Positions 627 through 23,688 of a stretch of 24,000 nt of DNA are shown here, in pieces. Below the pieces are notes generated by a model that searched no databases, was not told where the DNA came from, and was given only the letters and a program-made list of their open reading frames with translations. Origin of the DNA: Anaerosolibacter carboniphilus (GTDB lineage Bacteria > Bacillota > Clostridia > Peptostreptococcales > Thermotaleaceae); NCBI RefSeq assembly GCF_014205875.1, contig NZ_JACHEN010000022.1, positions 49,524 through 73,523 on the forward strand, written 5' to 3'. A program made the translations under genes and the position numbers. Position 1 is the stretch's first letter. Each line of letters opens with the position of its first letter.

Positions 627-661
627 ATATAGGAAATTATGGTTTTCAATTTCCTATATAT
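625..661. promoter_or_regulatory. Perfect 14-bp inverted repeat, candidate operator or activator site; its 3' arm contains a TATATA -10-like hexamer
   Basis: ATATATAGGAAATT (625-638), 9-nt spacer, AATTTCCTATATAT (648-661). It lies directly upstream of the GC-rich leader of the pepV-like/PTS cluster. Confidence 0.5.
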
Positions 662-800
662 GGGGTGTGCAGAGGGGATGCCCCTTTGCCGTATTCAGGA
701 AGGTCCTCAGGAACCTGCATTGCAGGCGTCGAAGGAAACCTAGGGTTTCCTAGCGAAAACAAATTGCCGATAGGCAATTTTGTTCTTTTGTAGTATTCAA
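662..800 (+). promoter_or_regulatory. Structured GC-rich 5' leader ending in an intrinsic terminator (attenuator-like); class not recognised
   Basis: Three consecutive GC-rich triloop hairpins: AGGGG-ATG-CCCCT (~673-685), CCTGC-ATT-GCAGG (~713-725) and GGAAACC-TAG-GGTTTCC (~734-750). They are followed by GAAAACAAATTGCC-GATA-GGCAATTTTGTTC plus CTTTTG (755-790). Downstream AAGAACAA (~828-835) can pair with the terminator's 3' arm TTGTTCTT. Confidence 0.45.
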
Positions 801-9335: not shown

Positions 9336-9653
9336 CTATTCTTTTGTAATAATCATTTCCACATTTCGAGGTAAAGCCAATCCCATTTCAACTTCGATTG
9401 CTTTTATGATAGCCGATGGCACGGGGCAGGCTAAATGCTTACAGTATTTATCTGTTACTTGATATACCAGAGAGGATGAAAATTTAGAAAAGCATTCATT
9501 CATTCCATTCAGCTCCTTTAATTCTTCAGCCATTTGATTGATATGATTGCATTTGGATTCAATATGGATTTCTGATGTTTTTCTGTCTTTTTTATGGACG
9601 ACAATTTTTGCTTCCATACCACAAACGCCAGGATGAACAATTACTGTTGACAT
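9336..9653 (-). CDS. Small conserved-looking Cys-containing protein, function unknown
   Basis: 105-aa ORF with RBS GGAGG upstream on the minus strand (plus-strand CCTCC at 9661-9665). Cys residues occur in PGVCG, SKCNH, NECF and KYCKHLACPVP. I recognise no catalytic motif. Confidence 0.6.
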   Translation of the reverse strand: MSTVIVHPGVCGMEAKIVVHKKDRKTSEIHIESKCNHINQMAEELKELNGMNECFSKFSSSLVYQVTDKYCKHLACPVPSAIIKAIEVEMGLALPRNVEMIITKE

Positions 9654-9730
9654 AAGAATACCTCCATTCGTAAATCCTATTTAATTACATTATGGCATTA
9701 ATCGATGGGAAAGCAAGAAAATTTTTAATA

Positions 9731-9760
9731 TTGACTCTTTTTCGATTTTGATGTTATGAT
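9731..9760 (+). promoter_or_regulatory. Candidate sigma-70 promoter for folT
   Basis: TTGACT (9731-9736), 18-nt spacer, TATGAT (9755-9760) preceded by TGT (extended -10-like). Confidence 0.45.
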
Positions 9761-9862
9761 TAAACACAAAATGGAAATCCAGAAATTGGGTATTTATATT
9801 TTATGAAATTTTAAATTTTGTTTTATGAATAGGCGTTGCCGTGCAGAAGGGAGGTGACATAT

Positions 9863-10387
9863 GTGAGCAACGTAAGAAAAATGGTATTTTTGAGCCTGTT
9901 TATTGCTTTGGAAGTTGTACTTACTCGTTTTCTTTCTGTCCAAACGCCAATTGTGAGAATCGGGTTTACTTTTCTACCCATCGCCATATCATCGATGATG
10001 TTTGGCCCTATTTTCGGAGGGGTAGCCGCTGCATTGGCGGACATCATAGGAATGATGGTTTTTCCATCAGGAGGTGCATACTTCCCTGGATTTACCCTAA
10101 CTGCTTTTCTAAGTGGTGTCATTTATGGTGTGGTGCTGTATAAAAAACCTAAGAATTTAGTTCGCATCAGCATTTCTGCCATCATTGTTTCGATCGTTAT
10201 AAATCTCGGACTGGATACGGTGTGGCTTATGATCCTAACAGGAAAGGGATTCATCGCCCTGTTACCAGCTAGAATTATTAAGTGTTTGGTCATGATTCCT
10301 ATACAGATACCAATGATCCATATTGTTTGGAACTATACGGTAGGTCGTCTGGATTTTAATTATGCTACGAAGGGTGTAAATGCTTAA
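9863..10387 (+). CDS. folT: ECF-transporter substrate-specific (S) component, folate family (FolT-like)
   Basis: Hydrophobic ~175-aa protein. N-terminus ...RKMVFLSLFIALEVVLTRFLS, then GFTFLPIAISSMMFGP and GMMVFPSGGAYFPGFTLTAFLSG, as in FolT. The ORF track start 9836 lacks an RBS, whereas GTG 9863 lies 8 nt after GGGAGG. ATG 9881 is an alternative. Confidence 0.7.
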   Translation: MSNVRKMVFLSLFIALEVVLTRFLSVQTPIVRIGFTFLPIAISSMMFGPIFGGVAAALADIIGMMVFPSGGAYFPGFTLTAFLSGVIYGVVLYKKPKNLVRISISAIIVSIVINLGLDTVWLMILTGKGFIALLPARIIKCLVMIPIQIPMIHIVWNYTVGRLDFNYATKGVNA

Positions 10388-10397
10388 ATAGATTGGG

Positions 10398-10432
10398 AAA
10401 AACCTTGCTGTGATTGGTCAGCAAGGTTTTTT
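10398..10432 (+). terminator. Rho-independent terminator after folT
   Basis: AAAAACCTTGCTG-(8-nt loop)-CAGCAAGGTTTTT followed by a T-run. Confidence 0.8.
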
Positions 10433-10482
10433 ATTGATATATATAATATTTTGAATATTTCAAAAAAACGCCTCTTGATATA

Positions 10483-10511
10483 TTGACATGTTTTGATTGA
10501 TTGAATATAAT
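10483..10511 (+). promoter_or_regulatory. Consensus sigma-70 promoter of the corrinoid protein/fhs/folD/fchA/metF operon
   Basis: TTGACA (10483-10488), exactly 17 nt, TATAAT (10506-10511). It lies ~265 nt upstream of the first start codon. Confidence 0.6.
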
Positions 10512-10782
10512 TAAGCTAAAGTTATAACAGTTAGATACATGTATATACAGGTTTTGTGTGAAGTGTAAATGAATAAAACATGATAGACAAATGAAAATGA
10601 ATGATTCTTAGAACGCTGATTCGAGTTATGCTTATTCCTGTTGATGGAAAACGTTTTTGTGTTTTCTTATATTTGAAATCATAATATGCAGCATATGCTG
10701 ATGGCGTTTCGTAGATATCATAATTCGGATTTTCAAGGATGAGTAGGACATAAAAAATAATGAATAAGGGGGATATGAACGT

Positions 10783-11421
10783 ATGATGGATTTAAGTGCA
10801 TTAAAGCAAGCTGTTGGAGACCTTGATGAAGGGACCGTGCTAGACATGCTAAACAAATTTGTAGCCACAAATCCTGGTGAAGAAGAAGCACAAAAGGTGG
10901 TCAATGCATGTCAGCAGGGAATGGCAGTTGTAGGGGATTTGTTTGACAAGGGTGAGTATTTTGTAGGGGATCTGATTTTTGCAGGGGAGCTTCTTACCAG
11001 TGCCATTGATGTGTTAAAACCAGTCATTGGATCAGGAAGCACAGAAAAGGCAGGAACCATCGTCCTTGGTACAGTACAAGGAGATTTGCATGACATCGGA
11101 AAGAACATTTTCAAAAGCATGGCAGAAGCAGCTGGTTTCGAGGTTCATGACCTTGGCATTGATGTGTCTGTGGATGCTTTCGTAGAAAAGGTAAAGGAAG
11201 TAAAACCACAAATCGTAGGTATGAGCGGTGTTCTAACCCTAGCCATTGATGCCATGAAAAATACAATCGATGAACTGAAGACTGCAGGTGTAAGGGATGA
11301 TATTAAAATTGTTATCGGTGGAAACCCTGTAACGAAAGAAGCCTGTGAGTTGGTAGGGGCCGATGCCTTCACCACCAATGCAGCAGAAGGTATCAAAATA
11401 TGCCAGGGGTGGGTGTGCTAA
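10783..11421 (+). CDS. Cobalamin(corrinoid)-binding protein, MtaC/MtbC/MttC-like (copy 1)
   Basis: 212 aa with an N-terminal helical cap domain, then the B12-binding motif [11 protein letters not shown] (DxHxxG), MSGVLT and the Rossmann-like ...KIVIGG... segment. RBS AAGGGGGA. Confidence 0.85.
10878..11094 (+). repeat. High-identity duplicated segment shared with corrinoid protein copy 2 (partner 23784-24000)
   Basis: By-eye alignment at an offset of 12906 nt gives about 14 mismatches in 217 nt. The first ~95 nt of the two genes are much more diverged. Confidence 0.8.
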
Positions 11422-11422
11422 T

Positions 11423-11510
11423 ATAGCAGATGCGGGATCTTTACAGCAGGAGAGAACGCGGCTGTTTATAGATATATTACCAGCAGCAAATGTTTTATCA
11501 AGAAAAGTTG
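11423..11510 (+). pseudogene. Decayed 5' remnant of a third URO-D-like methyltransferase paralog
   Basis: It translates as [19 protein letters not shown]... versus the N-termini MSDVKKLQQERKQLFEDLF (20366) and MTDVKALQQERVQIFTDLF (22031). ATA replaces the ATG, similarity is lost after ~19 codons, and the fhs RBS and start follow at 11540. Confidence 0.5.
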
Positions 11511-11539
11511 TTCATAATGATCAAAGAAGGGGGATTTTT

Positions 11540-13210
11540 ATGAAGACAGATGTACAAATTGCGCAAGAAGCCAAGATGCTTCCGATCATGGACGTGGCGA
11601 AAAATCTTGGAATTGGGGAAGATGAACTGGAGCTTTATGGCAAATATAAGGCAAAGGTTTCTCTGGATGTATTAAAGAGACTTGAAAACAAACCGAATGG
11701 GAAATTGGTTTTGGTTACGGCAATCAATCCAACGCCAGCAGGAGAGGGAAAGACAACAACGAATGTGGGCCTGTCTATGGGATTAAACAAGATAGGGAAA
11801 AAGACAATTACAGCTTTAAGGGAACCTTCCCTTGGACCATGCTTCGGTGTAAAGGGAGGAGCTGCTGGCGGTGGATATGCCCAAGTTGTGCCCATGGATG
11901 ATATCAATCTCCACTTTACGGGAGACTTCCATGCCATTACCTCAGCCCATAACCTTCTCGCAGCTTTATTAGACAATCACCTCCATCAGGGGAATGAATT
12001 AAATATCGATCCAAAGCGAGTGGTTTGGAGAAGGGTGCTCGACATGAATGATAGAGCTCTAAGGAACTTAGTGCTGGGTCTAGGTGGAAAGGGAGATGGT
12101 TTTGTTAGACAAGGTGGATTTGATATAACGGTTGCATCGGAAATCATGGCCATCCTTTGCCTCGCAGACAGTCTTTCAGATCTAAAGAACCGGCTTTCGA
12201 GGATGGTTGTTGCATATGATAGAGACGGGAAGGCGGTTACAGCGGGAGATTTGGAAGCAACAGGTGCGATGACACTGCTTCTGAAAGACGCCATCAAGCC
12301 AAACTTGGTTCAGACCCTTGAGAATACACCAGCGTTTATCCATGGTGGGCCATTCGCAAACATTGCCCATGGATGCAACTCCGTCATGGCTACAAAGGTG
12401 GCACTAAAGTTAGCTGACTATGTTGTGACAGAAGCAGGATTCGGTGCTGATCTCGGAGCTGAGAAGTTCTTCGACATCAAGTGCAGATTTGCAGGTCTGC
12501 ATCCAGATGCCGCCGTAATCGTAGCTACAGTAAGAGCTCTTAAAATGCATGGTGGTGTTGCGAAGCACGAACTTAGCTTTGAAAATCTTGATGCCCTTGC
12601 CAAGGGATTTGAAAATATCGAAAGGCATATTGAAAATGTTGCCAAGTTTGGTGTGCCAGTGGTGGTTGCAATCAACAAATTTCCAACAGATACAGAAGCA
12701 GAGATTAACCTTTTAAGAGAAAAATGCAGTGTATATGGAGTAGAGGTTGTACTATCTGAAGTATTCACAAAAGGTGGAGAAGGCGGCGTTGACCTTGCCA
12801 AAAAGGTTGTTGAGATTTGTGAGAGCAAAGAAAGCCACTATGCGCCCCTATATGATGTGGAAGGAACAATTCCAGAAAAGATCACAAAAATTGCAACTGA
12901 AATATACAGGGCGGACAGTGTAGAATTTACACCAGAAGCGAAGAAGCAAATTTCAAATATCAAAAAGCTAGGACTTGATAAAATGCCGATTTGTATGGCG
13001 AAGACCCAATACTCATTCTCTGATAATCCATCCCTCCTTGGTGCGCCAACTGGATTTAAAGTAACGGTTAGAGAGGTCAGGGTATCAGCAGGTGCAGGTT
13101 TCCTAGTGGCATTAACTGGAGAAATTATGACGATGCCTGGTCTTCCAAAGGTTCCTGCAGCCAATGGTATGGATATTACAGAGGATGGAGAAATTATCGG
13201 TCTATCATAA
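11540..13210 (+). CDS. fhs: Formate--tetrahydrofolate ligase
   Basis: N-terminus [16 protein letters not shown]..., P-loop-like [34 protein letters not shown] and the C-terminal ...[11 protein letters not shown].. tail. The ORF-track start 11363 is a read-through artefact overlapping the upstream gene. ATG 11540 has RBS AGAAGGGGG. Confidence 0.95.
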
Positions 13211-13292
13211 TCTGTACATAAATAAATATATGATGAGAATTGTTTTAATGTAAAAAAAATAGCATTACGAGAGATTATTGGGGGGAACTGAA

Positions 13293-14162
13293 GTGGGCGT
13301 TAAATTAGATGGTAAACCAGTAGTACAGCACTTGAGGGAAGATATCAAAAAGAGAGTAGCATTGCTTGAAGAGGATGGAAATACACCAACGATGCTCATC
13401 ATTCGTGTGGGTGAACGGGAAGATGATATTTCTTATGAAAAAAGCATACTAAAAAATTGTGAGATTCTTGGCATTCGAAGCTTTGTAAAATGCCTGCCTG
13501 TAGATGTTTCACAAGAAGATCTCATCGCTGTCATTGAGCAGGCCAATACCAATGATGATATTCATGGTATTATGCTTTTCAGGCCGCTGCCGGCGCATCT
13601 TGATTTAGAGGTCATTAGAGATGTTATAAACCCTATGAAAGACATCGACTGTATGAATCCTGTAAATCTACAAAAGGTGTTGGAAACCAATGTGAAGGGA
13701 ATAGCACCTTGTACGCCTAAAGCGGTTGTAGAATTGCTTAAATACTATAACATTCCTTTAGAAGGGGCCAATATCACTATGGTAGGGAGTAGTTTGGTTG
13801 TAGGTAAGCCATTGGGATTACTTCTTATAGAAGAAAAGGCAACGGTGACTTTTTGTCACATATACACAAAAGATGTGGCAGCTTTTACAACGAAAGCAGA
13901 TATTGTCATTGTAGCTATCGGAAAGGCAAAACTGATAAAAGACAACTATTTCAATGAAAATACTGTTGTTATAGATGTAGGGATTAATGTCACAGAGGAC
14001 GGAAAAATCTGTGGAGATGTGGATTATGACTTGGTTTTTGACAAGGTAAAAGCCATCACCCCTACAGTAGGTGGTATAGGAATTATCACCACTACCATAC
14101 TATTAAGTCATGTGGTAGAAGCATGTGAAACGTTCGTGCAGTCATATAGTGTGAATGCATAA
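13293..14162 (+). CDS. folD: Bifunctional methylene-THF dehydrogenase / methenyl-THF cyclohydrolase
   Basis: Motifs: KLDGKPV..., P.L.IIRVGEREDDISYEKS, HGIMLFRPLP, INP.KDIDC, PCTPKAV, VG.S..VGKP, TPTVGGIG. I prefer GTG 13293 (after GGGGGGAA) to the TTG 13278 in the ORF track. Confidence 0.9.
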   Translation: MGVKLDGKPVVQHLREDIKKRVALLEEDGNTPTMLIIRVGEREDDISYEKSILKNCEILGIRSFVKCLPVDVSQEDLIAVIEQANTNDDIHGIMLFRPLPAHLDLEVIRDVINPMKDIDCMNPVNLQKVLETNVKGIAPCTPKAVVELLKYYNIPLEGANITMVGSSLVVGKPLGLLLIEEKATVTFCHIYTKDVAAFTTKADIVIVAIGKAKLIKDNYFNENTVVIDVGINVTEDGKICGDVDYDLVFDKVKAITPTVGGIGIITTTILLSHVVEACETFVQSYSVNA

Positions 14163-14207
14163 AAATATGAATTGCAAAAGTAGATTAGGACGGTAGACGG
14201 AGTCAAA

Positions 14208-14903
14208 ATGGACCATGAGAAGAGAAGGCAGGAAATAGATACTGCCTTCTTTAACGAATTGGGAGGGATACCCTTGCTGGAGAAAAGCTGTGATGATTTT
14301 TTACAAGAACTCTCATCAAAATCTCCTGTACCAGGTGGTGGTGGAGCATCCGCTTATGTGGGCGCCCTGGGGATGGCCTTGGGTAGTATGGTAGGAAACC
14401 TTACCCTGGGGAAAAAGAAATATAAAGATGTGGAAGAAGACATTCATGAATTATTGGGAAAATCCGAAGAGATTATTCTTCAGCTAAAAGATCTTGTTGC
14501 AAGGGATGCTGAAGTATTCTACCCCCTATCCCAAGCATATGGATTACCTCAAAATACAGAAGAAGAAAAAAAAGAGAAGGATGAGAAGCTGCAGCAGGCT
14601 ATCATTGGGGCGACAATAGTTCCACTAGATATTGCTCGCTATTGTTTAAAAGCCATCGATTTACATGGGGAATATGCACAAAAAGGTACACGTATTGCTA
14701 TCAGTGATGTTGGTGTCGGTGTCGCATTTTGCAAGGCGGCGCTGCAGGGGGCGAAACTGAACGTTTTGATCAATACAAAAATGATGAAAGACAGCGTACT
14801 GAAAAATGATATTGAATGTCAGCTGCGTGAAATTGAAAATGAAGGAATAGGGAAAGCTGATCAAATATTACAATATGTTGAAGAATTACTTACAGCAGAA
14901 TAG
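14208..14903 (+). CDS. fchA: Cyclodeaminase/cyclohydrolase family protein (FTCD C-terminal domain; FchA-like methenyl-THF cyclohydrolase)
   Basis: L.ELSSKSPVPGGGGASAYVGALGMALGSMV is the signature N-terminal segment of the formiminotransferase-cyclodeaminase C-domain family. Position after fhs/folD fits. The start is uncertain. Confidence 0.75.
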   Translation: MDHEKRRQEIDTAFFNELGGIPLLEKSCDDFLQELSSKSPVPGGGGASAYVGALGMALGSMVGNLTLGKKKYKDVEEDIHELLGKSEEIILQLKDLVARDAEVFYPLSQAYGLPQNTEEEKKEKDEKLQQAIIGATIVPLDIARYCLKAIDLHGEYAQKGTRIAISDVGVGVAFCKAALQGAKLNVLINTKMMKDSVLKNDIECQLREIENEGIGKADQILQYVEELLTAE

Positions 14904-14955
14904 TATACATAATTGACAAGTTTCACAGTGGCATATCGTTCAAAGGGGGAATATT

Positions 14956-16527
14956 ATGTCAACAAGGAAACTCTCTTTCCGAGAAGCATTGCTCGATCCG
15001 GAACAAATGTCCGTTACGTGGGAATTGGTTCCAGGCAGGGGTGCACGAGAAGAGGCTCAGGAAAGTGTTGCTCAGATGGCTGAACTGGCTGCTAGGGATT
15101 CTAGAATTAACTCCATCACCCTAACGGATAACCCAAGTGGAAAGCCTGCTATACTGCCCTATCCTTTAGCCCTTGAAGCAAAAGAGCTAGGGATTGAAAC
15201 ACTGATACATTTTACCTGTAAAGATAAAAATAGAAATGACATAGAAAGTGAGCTCCATGCCCTTGCCAGATCAGGCCTTCCAAATCTGCTGGTGATGACT
15301 GGAGATTATACGACGGAGGGGTTCGGAGGTCGGCCCAAACCAGTATTTGACCTTGATGCGGTGCAGGCCTTAAGATTTATTAGAAAGATGAATAATGGAT
15401 TTGAAATACCAGCCCATAAAGGCTCTAAAAAGCTTCAAAATACGGATTTCTTTGCCGGTGCAGTCGTGTCTCCTTTTAAATCAAAGGAAGCTGAATTGAT
15501 GGCGCAATATTATAAAATGCATAAAAAGATTGCAGAGGGTGCCCAGTTTATTGTGACTCAATTGGGATATGACGCAAGAAAGTTTGATGAGCTGAAGCGG
15601 TATATGGATTGGTACAACTTAAAAACGCCTTTGGTAGGCAATATATTTGTACTGTCTTTACCTGTAGCGAAGATGATGAATAAAAACCTTATTCCAGGGT
15701 GTGTCGTTACGGATAAGATGGTTGCAGACTTAGAAGCTGAAAAAGCCAAGGGAAATGTAAAGGAACAACAATTATTAAGATCTGCGAAGCTCTATGCCAT
15801 CTTTAAAGGATTAAAATACAATGGAGTAACCATTGCAGGACATGGAATCGGTTATACCGATGTAAAGCATATAATTGAAAAGGGTGAAGAGCTAAGTGCC
15901 AATTGGCTGGATTATGTAGCGGAATTCGATTATCCTCAAGATAATGGATTCTATTTCTTCGAAAAGGATCCTGTGACGGGTTTAAATACCAACAAGATCG
16001 TGGATAGAAGCACAACTGGTGCTAGAGCTAAGTCTACCATGAAAGATGTCATGTTTAGCATGGTGCATCATCTCGCACTGAGTGAAAAAGCGCCCCTTTA
16101 CCCTATGATCAAAAAAATTGCAAAAAAAATAGATAAATCCTCTATGAAAAAACCGTTTACCAAAATGGAGTACTGGTCAAAAAGCATAATGCTTGAATGC
16201 CGCTTCTGTGGAGATTGTGTCATGCATGAACTTGCCTATACCTGCCCAATGTCTCAGTGCGCGAAGCACCAGAGAAACGGAGCCTGTGGCGGTAGTCGTG
16301 ATGGATGGTGTGAGGTCTATCCTGAAAAGCAGAAATGCATCTATGTAACGATGTACGAAAAGTTTAAAAATGCTGGAAAGGAAGGTACCATGAAAGAAGG
16401 TTACATACCTCCTGTGAACTGGGATTTATATAGGACATCCTCCTGGTTAAACTTCTTCGCTGGAAGAGATTATAATTACAGAAAAGATGTGGAAGAACAA
16501 GAAGAAGCTAAGAGTTATGCCGAATAA
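14956..16527 (+). CDS. metF: Methylenetetrahydrofolate reductase fused to a C-terminal Cys-rich MetV-like domain
   Basis: The N-terminal ~300 aa are MTHFR-like (SVTWELVPGRG, HFTCKD.NRN, LLVMTGDY, FIVTQLGYD). The C-terminal segment CRFCGDCVMHELAYTCPMSQCAKHQRNGACGGSRDGWCEV resembles the MTHFR C-terminal/MetV zinc-ribbon-like domain. Confidence 0.8.
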   Translation: MSTRKLSFREALLDPEQMSVTWELVPGRGAREEAQESVAQMAELAARDSRINSITLTDNPSGKPAILPYPLALEAKELGIETLIHFTCKDKNRNDIESELHALARSGLPNLLVMTGDYTTEGFGGRPKPVFDLDAVQALRFIRKMNNGFEIPAHKGSKKLQNTDFFAGAVVSPFKSKEAELMAQYYKMHKKIAEGAQFIVTQLGYDARKFDELKRYMDWYNLKTPLVGNIFVLSLPVAKMMNKNLIPGCVVTDKMVADLEAEKAKGNVKEQQLLRSAKLYAIFKGLKYNGVTIAGHGIGYTDVKHIIEKGEELSANWLDYVAEFDYPQDNGFYFFEKDPVTGLNTNKIVDRSTTGARAKSTMKDVMFSMVHHLALSEKAPLYPMIKKIAKKIDKSSMKKPFTKMEYWSKSIMLECRFCGDCVMHELAYTCPMSQCAKHQRNGACGGSRDGWCEVYPEKQKCIYVTMYEKFKNAGKEGTMKEGYIPPVNWDLYRTSSWLNFFAGRDYNYRKDVEEQEEAKSYAE

Positions 16528-18500: not shown

Positions 18501-20039
18501 TTGAAGGAATTGCAATTACGGATAAGAGAATTGGAGGAAATGTTAGCGGAACAGATACAGCAAAGCAAAGAATTAAGGTTGGATAACCAACGGCTGGCGG
18601 AAGAGAATAAAGATTTAAGATTCAAAGTGAACCTAATGGATGATATGCTGGACAATATGTATGAAGGCGTCCGTGCTGTTGATTCAGAGGGAAGAGTCAT
18701 TATTTATTCAAAGGCTAACGAAAAATATGATGTATGGAAAAAAGAAGAGGTCATCGGGAAGCATGAAAATGACCTATGGAATCCTCCCATAGGCTTCACC
18801 TTTAACAAACAGCAAATCATCAGATTAAAAAAACCCATAAAAAATGTAAAAATGATTGGCAGTTCAAAGGCTGGGAAACAATTTCATATCATAGCAGGTT
18901 TTTATCCATACTTTGAAGATGGTGAATGTAAAGCCTTCTATTATACGGGGAGAGATATTACCACATTGGATTCATTTATCATGCAAACCTATGAAATTCA
19001 GCGGAACATGACGAAAAAGAACAATGAGAAGAAACGCATGAATGGCTGTAGGTTTACCCTAAATGATATCATAGGCACCAGTGCAGCGATTACGAGCTGT
19101 AAGGATAAAGCGAGAAGGTTTTCGAATTATAATGCCAACATACTCATTTACGGGGAGACGGGAACCGGAAAAGAAATGTTTGCCCAAGGTATTCACAATG
19201 AAAGCTTATACTCCCATGAACCTTTCATTGCATTAAACTGCTCAGCAGTACCTGAATCCCTTATTGAAAGCATATTGTTTGGTACTGTAAAAGGGGCATT
19301 TACAGGGGCTGAAAATATGTCAGGATTATTTGAACAGGTAGGGAAGGGGACTCTTTTTCTAGATGAAATCAATTCCATGCCTTTGGCCATGCAAGCAAAA
19401 CTTCTTCGGGTACTTCAAGAGAAAAAGATTAGAAGGATCGGAGGTGTTAAAGATATCGATGTGGAATGCTGCGTGATTAGTGCAACCAACATGGATCCTA
19501 AGGAAGCAGTGAAAAAATCCATCTTAAGAGAGGATTTCTATTATAGAATATCCACAGTATTGTTGACAATACCACCCCTAAGAGAAAGAAAGGAAGACAT
19601 TGCTCTACTTATTCAGCATTTTATAAAGGAATTAAATAAAAGATTTTCAAAGCATATAAAGAGTATAGATCCAGATGTACTGTCTTCCTTGATGGAGTAT
19701 CACTGGCCTGGAAATGTACGAGAGCTTCTAAACACATTGGAATATGCAGTTATTCTTTGTGAAGACAATCAGACGGTCTTAACCTATGAGCTTTTTCCTA
19801 ATTATATTTATTATAAAAAGAATAGACAGTGTGATTTTGGAGAGGTCAGCATTGGACAGGATAGTTTCATTGAATACAGCAATACGGAGGATTTAAACAC
19901 CCTATTGGATAATTACGAAAAAAATATTATTGTATCCGTCATCAATAAGTCAAGCGGGAACATTTCTACAGCAGCGAAGAAACTAGGTATTGATCGGAAA
20001 TCATTGTATAGAAAGATTGAAAAATATAAGTTGAAATAA
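18501..20039 (+). CDS. Sigma-54-dependent transcriptional activator (bEBP): coiled-coil + PAS sensor, AAA+ domain, Fis-type HTH
   Basis: Walker A GETGTGKE, the sigma-54-contact loop GAFTGA (..VKGAFTGAE..), Walker B LFLDEI, WPGNVREL, and the C-terminal HTH ISTAAKKLGIDRKSLYRKIEKY. The N-terminus is a heptad-like helix followed by a PAS-like region. TTG start after AAGGAG. Confidence 0.9.
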   Translation: MKELQLRIRELEEMLAEQIQQSKELRLDNQRLAEENKDLRFKVNLMDDMLDNMYEGVRAVDSEGRVIIYSKANEKYDVWKKEEVIGKHENDLWNPPIGFTFNKQQIIRLKKPIKNVKMIGSSKAGKQFHIIAGFYPYFEDGECKAFYYTGRDITTLDSFIMQTYEIQRNMTKKNNEKKRMNGCRFTLNDIIGTSAAITSCKDKARRFSNYNANILIYGETGTGKEMFAQGIHNESLYSHEPFIALNCSAVPESLIESILFGTVKGAFTGAENMSGLFEQVGKGTLFLDEINSMPLAMQAKLLRVLQEKKIRRIGGVKDIDVECCVISATNMDPKEAVKKSILREDFYYRISTVLLTIPPLRERKEDIALLIQHFIKELNKRFSKHIKSIDPDVLSSLMEYHWPGNVRELLNTLEYAVILCEDNQTVLTYELFPNYIYYKKNRQCDFGEVSIGQDSFIEYSNTEDLNTLLDNYEKNIIVSVINKSSGNISTAAKKLGIDRKSLYRKIEKYKLK

Positions 20040-20235: not shown

Positions 20236-20251
20236 TGGCATAAATATTGCT
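20236..20251 (+). promoter_or_regulatory. Sigma-54 (-24/-12) promoter 1
   Basis: TGGCAT-AAATA-TTGCT matches TGGCAC-N5-TTGCW, ~115 nt upstream of ATG 20366. Confidence 0.75.
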
Positions 20252-21948: not shown

Positions 21949-21964
21949 TGGCATAAGAATTGCT
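21949..21964 (+). promoter_or_regulatory. Sigma-54 (-24/-12) promoter 2
   Basis: TGGCAT-AAGAA-TTGCT, ~70 nt upstream of ATG 22031. Confidence 0.75.
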
Positions 21965-23594: not shown

Positions 23595-23610
23595 TGGCAC
23601 AGATATTGCT
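23595..23610 (+). promoter_or_regulatory. Sigma-54 (-24/-12) promoter 3
   Basis: TGGCAC-AGATA-TTGCT, ~80 nt upstream of ATG 23689. Confidence 0.8.
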
Positions 23611-23688
23611 GTTTATTTGTATATACATGTACATGGTGGTTCTAAATGCCGTCAATACGTGAATCTATACAATAAAGGGGGCAGTTTT

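Follow-up and report, generated by a model that had tools for sequence, protein, structure and literature searches.

Three-component corrinoid methyltransferase systems are represented by the O-demethylases of acetogens and by the CdmBCA chloromethane system of Acetobacterium dehalogenans (PDB 9RUI; PMC13222342), and acetogens can also carry a second formyl-tetrahydrofolate (THF) synthetase operon with a formate transporter, such as fhs2-fdhC of A. woodii (Awo_c08040/08050; PMC10284823). This report concerns a short gene remnant between a corrinoid protein gene, CP1, and fhs in a 24,000-nucleotide (nt) stretch of the Anaerosolibacter carboniphilus genome, hereafter the window (RefSeq assembly GCF_014205875.1, contig NZ_JACHEN010000022.1, positions 49,524–73,523, forward strand); coordinates without a prefix are those of the window. 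The contig, C22, belongs to a 5.18-Mb draft assembly in 79 contigs with an estimated contamination of 5%. The labels CP, MT I and MT II denote corrinoid protein, URO-D-like methyltransferase and pterin-binding methyltransferase, respectively. The remnant very probably represents the non-functional first 19 codons of an MT I gene (mtI) within a degenerate operon copy that landed between a FolT-like transporter gene and fhs, and from which the MT II gene (mtII) and the rest of mtI are gone.

The putative parent of this copy, an operon of mtII, CP4 and the MT I gene MT_82488, resembles the three-component systems in that its MT II is of the pterin-binding type, its CP is a B12-binding protein and its MT I is URO-D-like, with a RACo-type activator nearby, whereas the CP1 locus keeps the CP only. 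The nearest MT I of solved structure is CdmB, which the paralogue at window 22031–23185 matches at E 2e-26; this similarity is distant, and the alignment does not include the N-terminal 45 residues from which the remnant derives. As for the fhs2-fdhC type, the closest relatives of the Fhs encoded here lie in fhs-folD-fchA-formate transporter clusters, and a second, distant fhs is present on contig C25. Unlike in that type, a metF-V fusion replaces the transporter gene, and a CP gene and an apparently captured promoter head the operon.

A truncated mtI gene between CP1 and fhs

The following features make up the CP1–fhs junction.

10783–11421, + strand: CP1, intact corrinoid (B12-binding) protein gene, 212 amino acids (aa); Pfam B12-binding and B12-binding_2
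11423–11479, + strand: mtI relic, codons 1–19 of a URO-D-like MT I gene, homologous to MT_82488, start codon now ATA
11480–11539, + strand: spacer, origin without match, ending in the fhs ribosome-binding site GAAGGGGGA at 11526–11534
11540–13210, + strand: fhs, formate--tetrahydrofolate ligase, 556 aa; Pfam FTHFS, 937 bits, full length

The CP1 gene ends with TAA at 11419–11421 and, after a single spacer base (T at 11422), the relic frame begins at 11423 and reads ATA GCA GAT GCG GGA TCT TTA CAG CAG GAG AGA ACG CGG CTG TTT ATA GAT ATA TTA. An MT I gene comes after each of CP2, CP3 and CP4, and the junction there is stop-T-ATG, the same geometry as the stop-T-ATA at the end of CP1; in all four CP–MT I modules the junction is thus stop-T-AT(G/A), and the relic keeps its ancestral position relative to its CP neighbour. 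A tblastn search identified six intact MT I paralogues in the genome, all on C22. When the relic was aligned in a fixed register to the 5′-ends of all six, as a preliminary description of this DNA had suggested, 32–39 of the 57 nt were identical, the top match being MT_82488, the partner of CP4 (39/57 nt, 10/19 aa). The orthologue of MT_82488 in the genome G009 (locus L004), which is 89% identical to it, matches the relic at 38/57 nt, and an ERT signature is common to the relic, MT_82488 and this orthologue. Two million random genomic 57-mers gave a mean of 15.5 identities (standard deviation 3.5), which places the relic at z ~6.8; three of them reached 39, at least one of these being the gene itself (maximum 57/57). 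The similarity of the relic to MT I 5′-ends is real, and chance is excluded. The preliminary description, which had proposed a decayed 5′-end of a third methyltransferase paralog between CP1 and fhs, was therefore right about the nature of the fragment and wrong about the count, as the relic is a seventh copy.

The homology ends abruptly. BLAST alignments of CP1 with CP4, and of CP1 with the CP–MT I modules of G009 and of a further genome, G015, cross the CP1 stop codon and all end at 11476–11477, and the fixed-register identity to MT_82488 falls from 39/57 up to 11479 to 9/60 beyond it. The homology breakpoint at 11477–11479 is sharp, in agreement with the earlier statement that ATA stands in place of ATG and that similarity fades after about 19 codons. 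The URO-D/TIM-barrel catalytic domain is absent from the relic, where homology stops after codon 19, and tblastn detected no further MT I fragment, including an orphan 3′-part, in the window or the assembly. Two candidate origins for the sequence to the right were tried and rejected: as an MT I 3′-end or downstream remnant, 11478–11539 (62 nt) gave a best island score of 16 against 14.5 ± 1.6 for shuffled sequences, and as a homologue of the FolT–fhs spacer of the relatives' loci L024 and L026, the fhs-proximal 60 nt were equalled by 154 of 1000 shuffles. Nothing matching 11478–11539 was found in MT_82488 plus 300 nt.

Decay of the relic

The initiator of the relic is ATA (11423–11425), and the relic contains no usable start codon (ATG, GTG or TTG). 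With the G009 orthologue as outgroup, 14 substitutions were assigned to the relic branch and 3 to the branch of the intact MT_82488 (binomial p 0.013); the relic-branch changes are distributed 4/4/6 over the three codon positions, and the branch length is 0.30 per site (Jukes–Cantor, JC). Residues that are invariant across the six own MT I paralogues are replaced in the relic (M1I, V4A, K5G), although the G009 orthologue likewise has A at position 4. Because the start is ATA and the changes, 14 versus 3, are spread over all codon positions, the relic is a dead fragment under relaxed constraint, with the characteristics of a pseudogene and not those of an MT I gene.

Taken by itself, the stub is a gene scar of an ordinary kind. 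It resembles the truncated bacterial pseudogenes that arise from segmental duplication and reductive deletion in its native position and register and its lost start, and it shares with them the abrupt end of homology and the accelerated, codon-position-independent substitution. It differs from ordinary gene relics in two ways: it happens to be in frame with the next gene, and it marks a rewiring, given that the promoter and CP gene of the copy now appear to head fhs-folD-fchA-metF.

The CP1 locus as a degenerate operon copy

The CP genes on C22 start at 60306 (CP1), 73212 (CP2), 76990 (CP3) and 81848 (CP4); within the window CP1 and CP2 are at 10783 and 23689, and CP3 and CP4 are at L021:3467 and L021:8325. 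The CP1 product scores 85.8 and 55.4 bits against Pfam B12-binding and B12-binding_2, respectively, and its D-x-H-x-x-G motif, GDLHDIG, is encoded within 11080–11100. CP1 and CP4 are 96% identical in aa and 90.6% in nt sequence, with nonsynonymous (dN) and synonymous (dS) distances of 0.017 and 0.49 (dN/dS 0.035). CP1 is thus judged to be intact and under strong purifying selection, and is predicted to be a corrinoid protein of methyltransferase systems. The four own CPs form a clade apart from the CPs of relatives (support 100/100), whereas identity among their partner MT I genes is only 50–89% and these have orthologues in other genera; this discordance suggests that the CP genes are subject to concerted evolution or repeated replacement.

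The operon that contains CP4 is located 21 kb downstream of the CP1 locus on the same contig. A pterin-binding MT II gene (C22:80858–81670; L021:7335–8147) lies directly before CP4, and the order mtII-CP-mtI is kept in G015 and G009, with MT II 87% identical in aa sequence. The region upstream of CP1, from the FolT-like gene on, comprises the features below, two of which, the promoter/operator block and the CP1 leader, could be aligned with this operon.

9836–10387, + strand: FolT-like energy-coupling factor (ECF) transporter S component; Pfam ECF_trnsprt / ECF-ribofla_trS
10397–10432, + strand: intrinsic-terminator-like hairpin after FolT, with a 14-bp stem, an 8-nt loop, a 3′-arm ending in a U run and more U beyond
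10441–10552, + strand: promoter/operator block, homologous to the mtII-CP4-mtI promoter
10553–10644, + strand: 92 unalignable nt, in place of the parent's 879-nt stretch that holds mtII
10645–10782, + strand: CP1 leader and ribosome-binding site, homologous to the mtII–CP4 intergenic region

The block 10441–10552 matches C22:80716–80827, a region 31–142 nt upstream of mtII, with 88/117 identities (75%; E 2e-11). It contains a sigma-70 promoter, TTGACA-17-TATAAT, at 10483–10511 with a 12/12 match to the consensus and, just downstream of the −10 element, an imperfect inverted repeat at 10522–10549 with about three mismatches to GTATATACAG-N8-CTGTATATAC. The −35 and −10 elements and the repeat GTATATACAG-N8-CTGTATATAC are kept upstream of mtII in G015 and G009, which represent two other genera. 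The CP1 leader aligns with C22:81707–81847 at ~63–79% per 100 columns pairwise, the best local block having 63/87 identities. Because the promoter block, the leader, the CP gene and the mtI stub are each homologous to the parent, the CP1 locus is, on sequence homology, a degenerate copy that derives from the entire mtII-CP-mtI operon with its promoter and lacks mtII. The homology of the surviving pieces also upholds the earlier view of the locus as a scar of module rearrangement. A remnant of mtII was sought in 10553–10644, including the 13-mer AATGAATGATTCT that resembles the mtII start, and was rejected, as 415/500, 246/500 and 107/500 shuffles were as good; tblastn of MT II against the CP1 leader gave no match.

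The operator-like repeat fronts mtII-CP-mtI in three genera (the own copy at C22:80790–80825, which is L021:7267–7302, and the loci L003 and L004), and its core TGTATATACA also occurs at 23618–23627, in the vicinity of the CP2 sigma-54 promoter. A gene for a RACo-type reductive activator lies at L021:19103–19999, outside the window; the MT II and RACo-type components, which seem to be missing from the window, are thus present just beyond it in the island.

Predicted transcription into fhs

The hairpin at 10397–10432 is stable (dG −19.8 kcal/mol, z −5.25), and none of 200 shuffled sequences equalled it. It was overlooked by the consensus terminator scan, so the negative terminator results of that scan need caution. 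No + strand promoter-like site was detected between 11268 and 11540, and the CP1–fhs spacer contained no hairpin or terminator, with no stable fold at 11400–11560 (z −0.89). Because of the FolT terminator, the absence of a promoter from 11268 to fhs and the absence of a hairpin in the spacer, CP1 and fhs are predicted to form one transcription unit, and the data are consistent with co-transcription from the consensus sigma-70 promoter. A transcript from this promoter, probably captured, would run into fhs, folD, fchA and the metF-V fusion, with the terminator insulating it from FolT, and the relic, with no function of its own, would form the first half of a 118-nt intercistronic spacer in this CP1-fhs-folD-fchA-metF transcript.

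The true fhs start is ATG 11540, behind GAAGGGGGA. The fhs genes of the 11 closest of 16 relatives, together with that of P0122, the nearest Fhs, have an MKTD start behind their own ribosome-binding site; no conservation of the fhs leader was found in the 16 relatives. The 615-codon open reading frame (ORF) at 11363–13210 is accordingly an artefactual 59-codon N-terminal extension of Fhs, as the preliminary description had recognized. For annotation, fhs starts at 11540 and not at 11363, and there is no gene to call at 11423.

An empty site between FolT and fhs in relatives

The CP1–fhs junction was searched for in 40 relatives and 21 genomes of the family, and relatives at the protein level were taken from a collection of 5.8 billion proteins. 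In this collection, P0122 is 96% identical in aa sequence to the Fhs encoded here and occurs on three metagenome contigs, where the gene order is 5-formyl-THF cyclo-ligase, FolT-like ECF S component, a 36-nt spacer, fhs, folD and fchA, followed in the contigs that are long enough by a formate/nitrite transporter gene. The FolT-like gene of the window shares 70% nt identity with its counterpart in L024, an S-component gene that is separated from fhs by 36 nt. Nucleotide homology of these relatives to the window runs through FolT to 10330 and resumes from 11535, and the interval of ~1.15 kb that separates FolT from fhs here, with the terminator hairpin, the promoter block, CP1 and the relic, is absent from them. 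The FolT–fhs adjacency in the closest relatives is the empty site. The fhs gene is 83.6% identical in nt sequence to that of L024, with a dS of 1.30; set against the CP1–CP4 dS of 0.49, this is consistent with an insertion that postdates the divergence of the two lineages.

The comparison with relatives that had been proposed, for an intact MT I gene between CP and fhs, turned up no CP beside fhs in any family genome searched, and yielded instead FolT and fhs 36 nt apart. Within the 40 relatives and 21 family genomes no match spans CP1–fhs, and exact-protein look-ups of CP1 and Fhs returned no other record.

Two observations concern the fhs operon itself. A 523-aa MTHFR with a MetV-like C-terminal fusion stands here in place of the transporter gene (window 13278–16527 versus L024:4211–6676 and L028:7729–10245), and the second, more distant fhs lies at C25:26512–26793 and is 71% identical in nt sequence over the matched part.

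Proposed history and alternative explanations

These results suggest the following history. The source would have been a complete operon (promoter/operator, mtII, CP and mtI), of which the mtII-CP4-MT_82488 operon is the intact parent or its sister, and a copy of it would have entered the short FolT–fhs spacer. In this copy, mtII and all of mtI past codon 19 are gone, and the surviving pieces are the promoter/operator block, the CP leader, CP1 and 57 nt of mtI; fhs would have gained both a CP gene and a promoter that it did not have before. The preliminary description had envisaged a module at this site whose methyltransferase was removed, leaving an orphan CP gene beside fhs. A copy of the module does appear to be present; a later deletion of mtI is indistinguishable from truncation on arrival, and the orphan was probably not left behind but arrived as part of a whole-operon copy between FolT and fhs, in which mtII is missing as well.

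Several points weigh against this history. No orthologous locus or intermediate stage was found in the collections searched, the best outside CP being 85% identical. The single same-genus genome searched (G001, ~96% complete) has no CP-length match, and its fhs matches only at 70% nt identity. The place of mtII is occupied by 92 unalignable nt rather than a clean deletion joint, and the 60 nt that follow the relic have no match, so that neither joint is reconstructable. The CP1–CP4 dS may have been lowered by gene conversion, and the timing rests on 57 sites. Finally, the assembly is a draft in 79 contigs.

The strongest competitor departs from the proposed history in the mtI sub-step only: a segmental copy would by chance have reached only 57 nt into mtI at insertion, so that a full MT I gene was never at the site. 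This has a substantial chance of being correct, if not the larger one. It saves one event at the right-hand end, and the relic-branch length of JC 0.30 is close to the share of CP1 in its synonymous distance to CP4 (0.49 × 29/45, ~0.32), which, together with the equality of the changes over the codon positions, fits neutral decay since the duplication. That clock, however, comprises 57 sites and a dS possibly distorted by gene conversion; the use of the CP1–CP4 dS to date deletion against truncation at birth was rejected as unreliable, given the apparent concerted evolution of the CP paralogues. Furthermore, the copy lacks mtII between promoter and CP, where other genera have it, which argues that internal loss after copying occurred at least once. 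Because the same copy also lost mtII, we lean slightly towards loss of mtI by deletion from a fuller copy, with truncation on arrival nearly as likely.

A reversed polarity is improbable. Here, mtII-CP-mtI would have been resident first, and fhs-folD-fchA would have been inserted or recombined next to it, replacing mtI. The fhs-folD-fchA block is indeed unlike its relatives at both ends, with the metF-V fusion after fchA instead of the formate/nitrite transporter. However, FolT upstream and fhs downstream of the insert are neighbours 36 nt apart in the closest relatives, and in G022, too, a FolT-like gene lies upstream of fhs; with the order of events reversed, FolT would need to have been carried to the far side of the module.

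It is less probable still that the stretch is functional, either as an N-terminal extension of Fhs or an upstream ORF, or as an RNA or DNA element of CP–MT junctions that acts in regulation or translational coupling. The frame from 11423 is open for 39 codons in phase with fhs, and a Shine–Dalgarno-like GGGGTGGGTG stands ahead of it, intact inside the CP1 3′-end. This openness is nevertheless unremarkable, as 22% of random genomic 39-codon windows are stop-free, and GGGGTGGGTG is retained because it encodes G-W-V of CP1. Moreover, the frame lacks ATG, GTG and TTG, in the closest Fhs relatives a separate ribosome-binding site precedes an MKTD start, and the relic has replaced MT I-invariant residues, with changes at all codon positions. 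An RNA element is likewise at odds with the fold z-score of −0.89 and with the absence of any Rfam match at the gathering score or at E ≤ 1 in the CP1–fhs spacer; no riboswitch or known RNA was found in 9600–11600.

An assembly chimera inside the repeated CP/MT family, to which the 79 contigs, the 5% estimated contamination and the four CP paralogues with 86–91% nt identity might point, or a chance similarity can practically be dismissed, since a false join would copy a paralogue exactly, whereas neither the relic nor CP1 duplicates another sequence (identity to the nearest paralogue is 68% and 91%, respectively), the assembly holds no orphan MT I 3′-part, and the z of ~6.8 was obtained in a register fixed beforehand.

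Possible regulatory capture

A bolder reading of the proposed history, possible but on balance doubtful, is that the locus represents a regulatory capture: the operon copy between FolT and fhs, having shed both methyltransferase genes, would have put fhs, folD, fchA and metF-V under the methyl-transfer promoter/operator (GTATATACAG-N8-CTGTATATAC) together with a CP gene of their own, and the ATA codon would have been selected. It may be, speculatively, that ATA was favoured since an ATG at 11423 would start a frame reading into Fhs; the change from ATG to ATA would then stop ribosomes at GGGGTGGGTG from starting a frame that is open into fhs. If this reading is true, methyl-group capture and methyl-THF oxidation/reduction would be switched on as one regulon, and the change of ATG to ATA would have been selected against an Fhs with a 39-residue foreign N-terminus.

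The six intact paralogues, the promoter homology to mtII-CP4-mtI and the FolT–fhs empty site are new beyond the preliminary description. Combined with the latter two, the stub dates and orients the rearrangement, in which accessory folate C1 genes would have acquired a methyl-transfer promoter, an operator and a CP gene, and the locus would provide a concrete case of corrinoid methyltransferase modules being copied, pruned and rewired. This history predicts co-regulation of fhs with the mtII-CP4-mtI operon.

Additional features of the island

Sigma-54 type −24/−12 boxes (TGGCAY-N5-TTGCT) were identified at 20236–20251, 21949–21964 and 23595–23610, upstream of MT1, MT2 and CP2, respectively, and a sigma-54 activator gene at 18501–20039 adjoins them. 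Short ORFs at C22:72726–72860, 83662–83799 and 90836–90973 lie just after three 385-aa MT I paralogues and match residues 410–455 of the longer MT1; the same pattern is found in L002–L004. Genes for MFS_2, MFS_1 and CitMHS transporters and for a GntR regulator are also present outside the window. At window 655–739, upstream of a cluster of M20-peptidase and phosphotransferase system (PTS) genes, a match to the Rfam Clostridiales-2 small RNA (sRNA) family was detected with 64.7 bits, above the gathering score.

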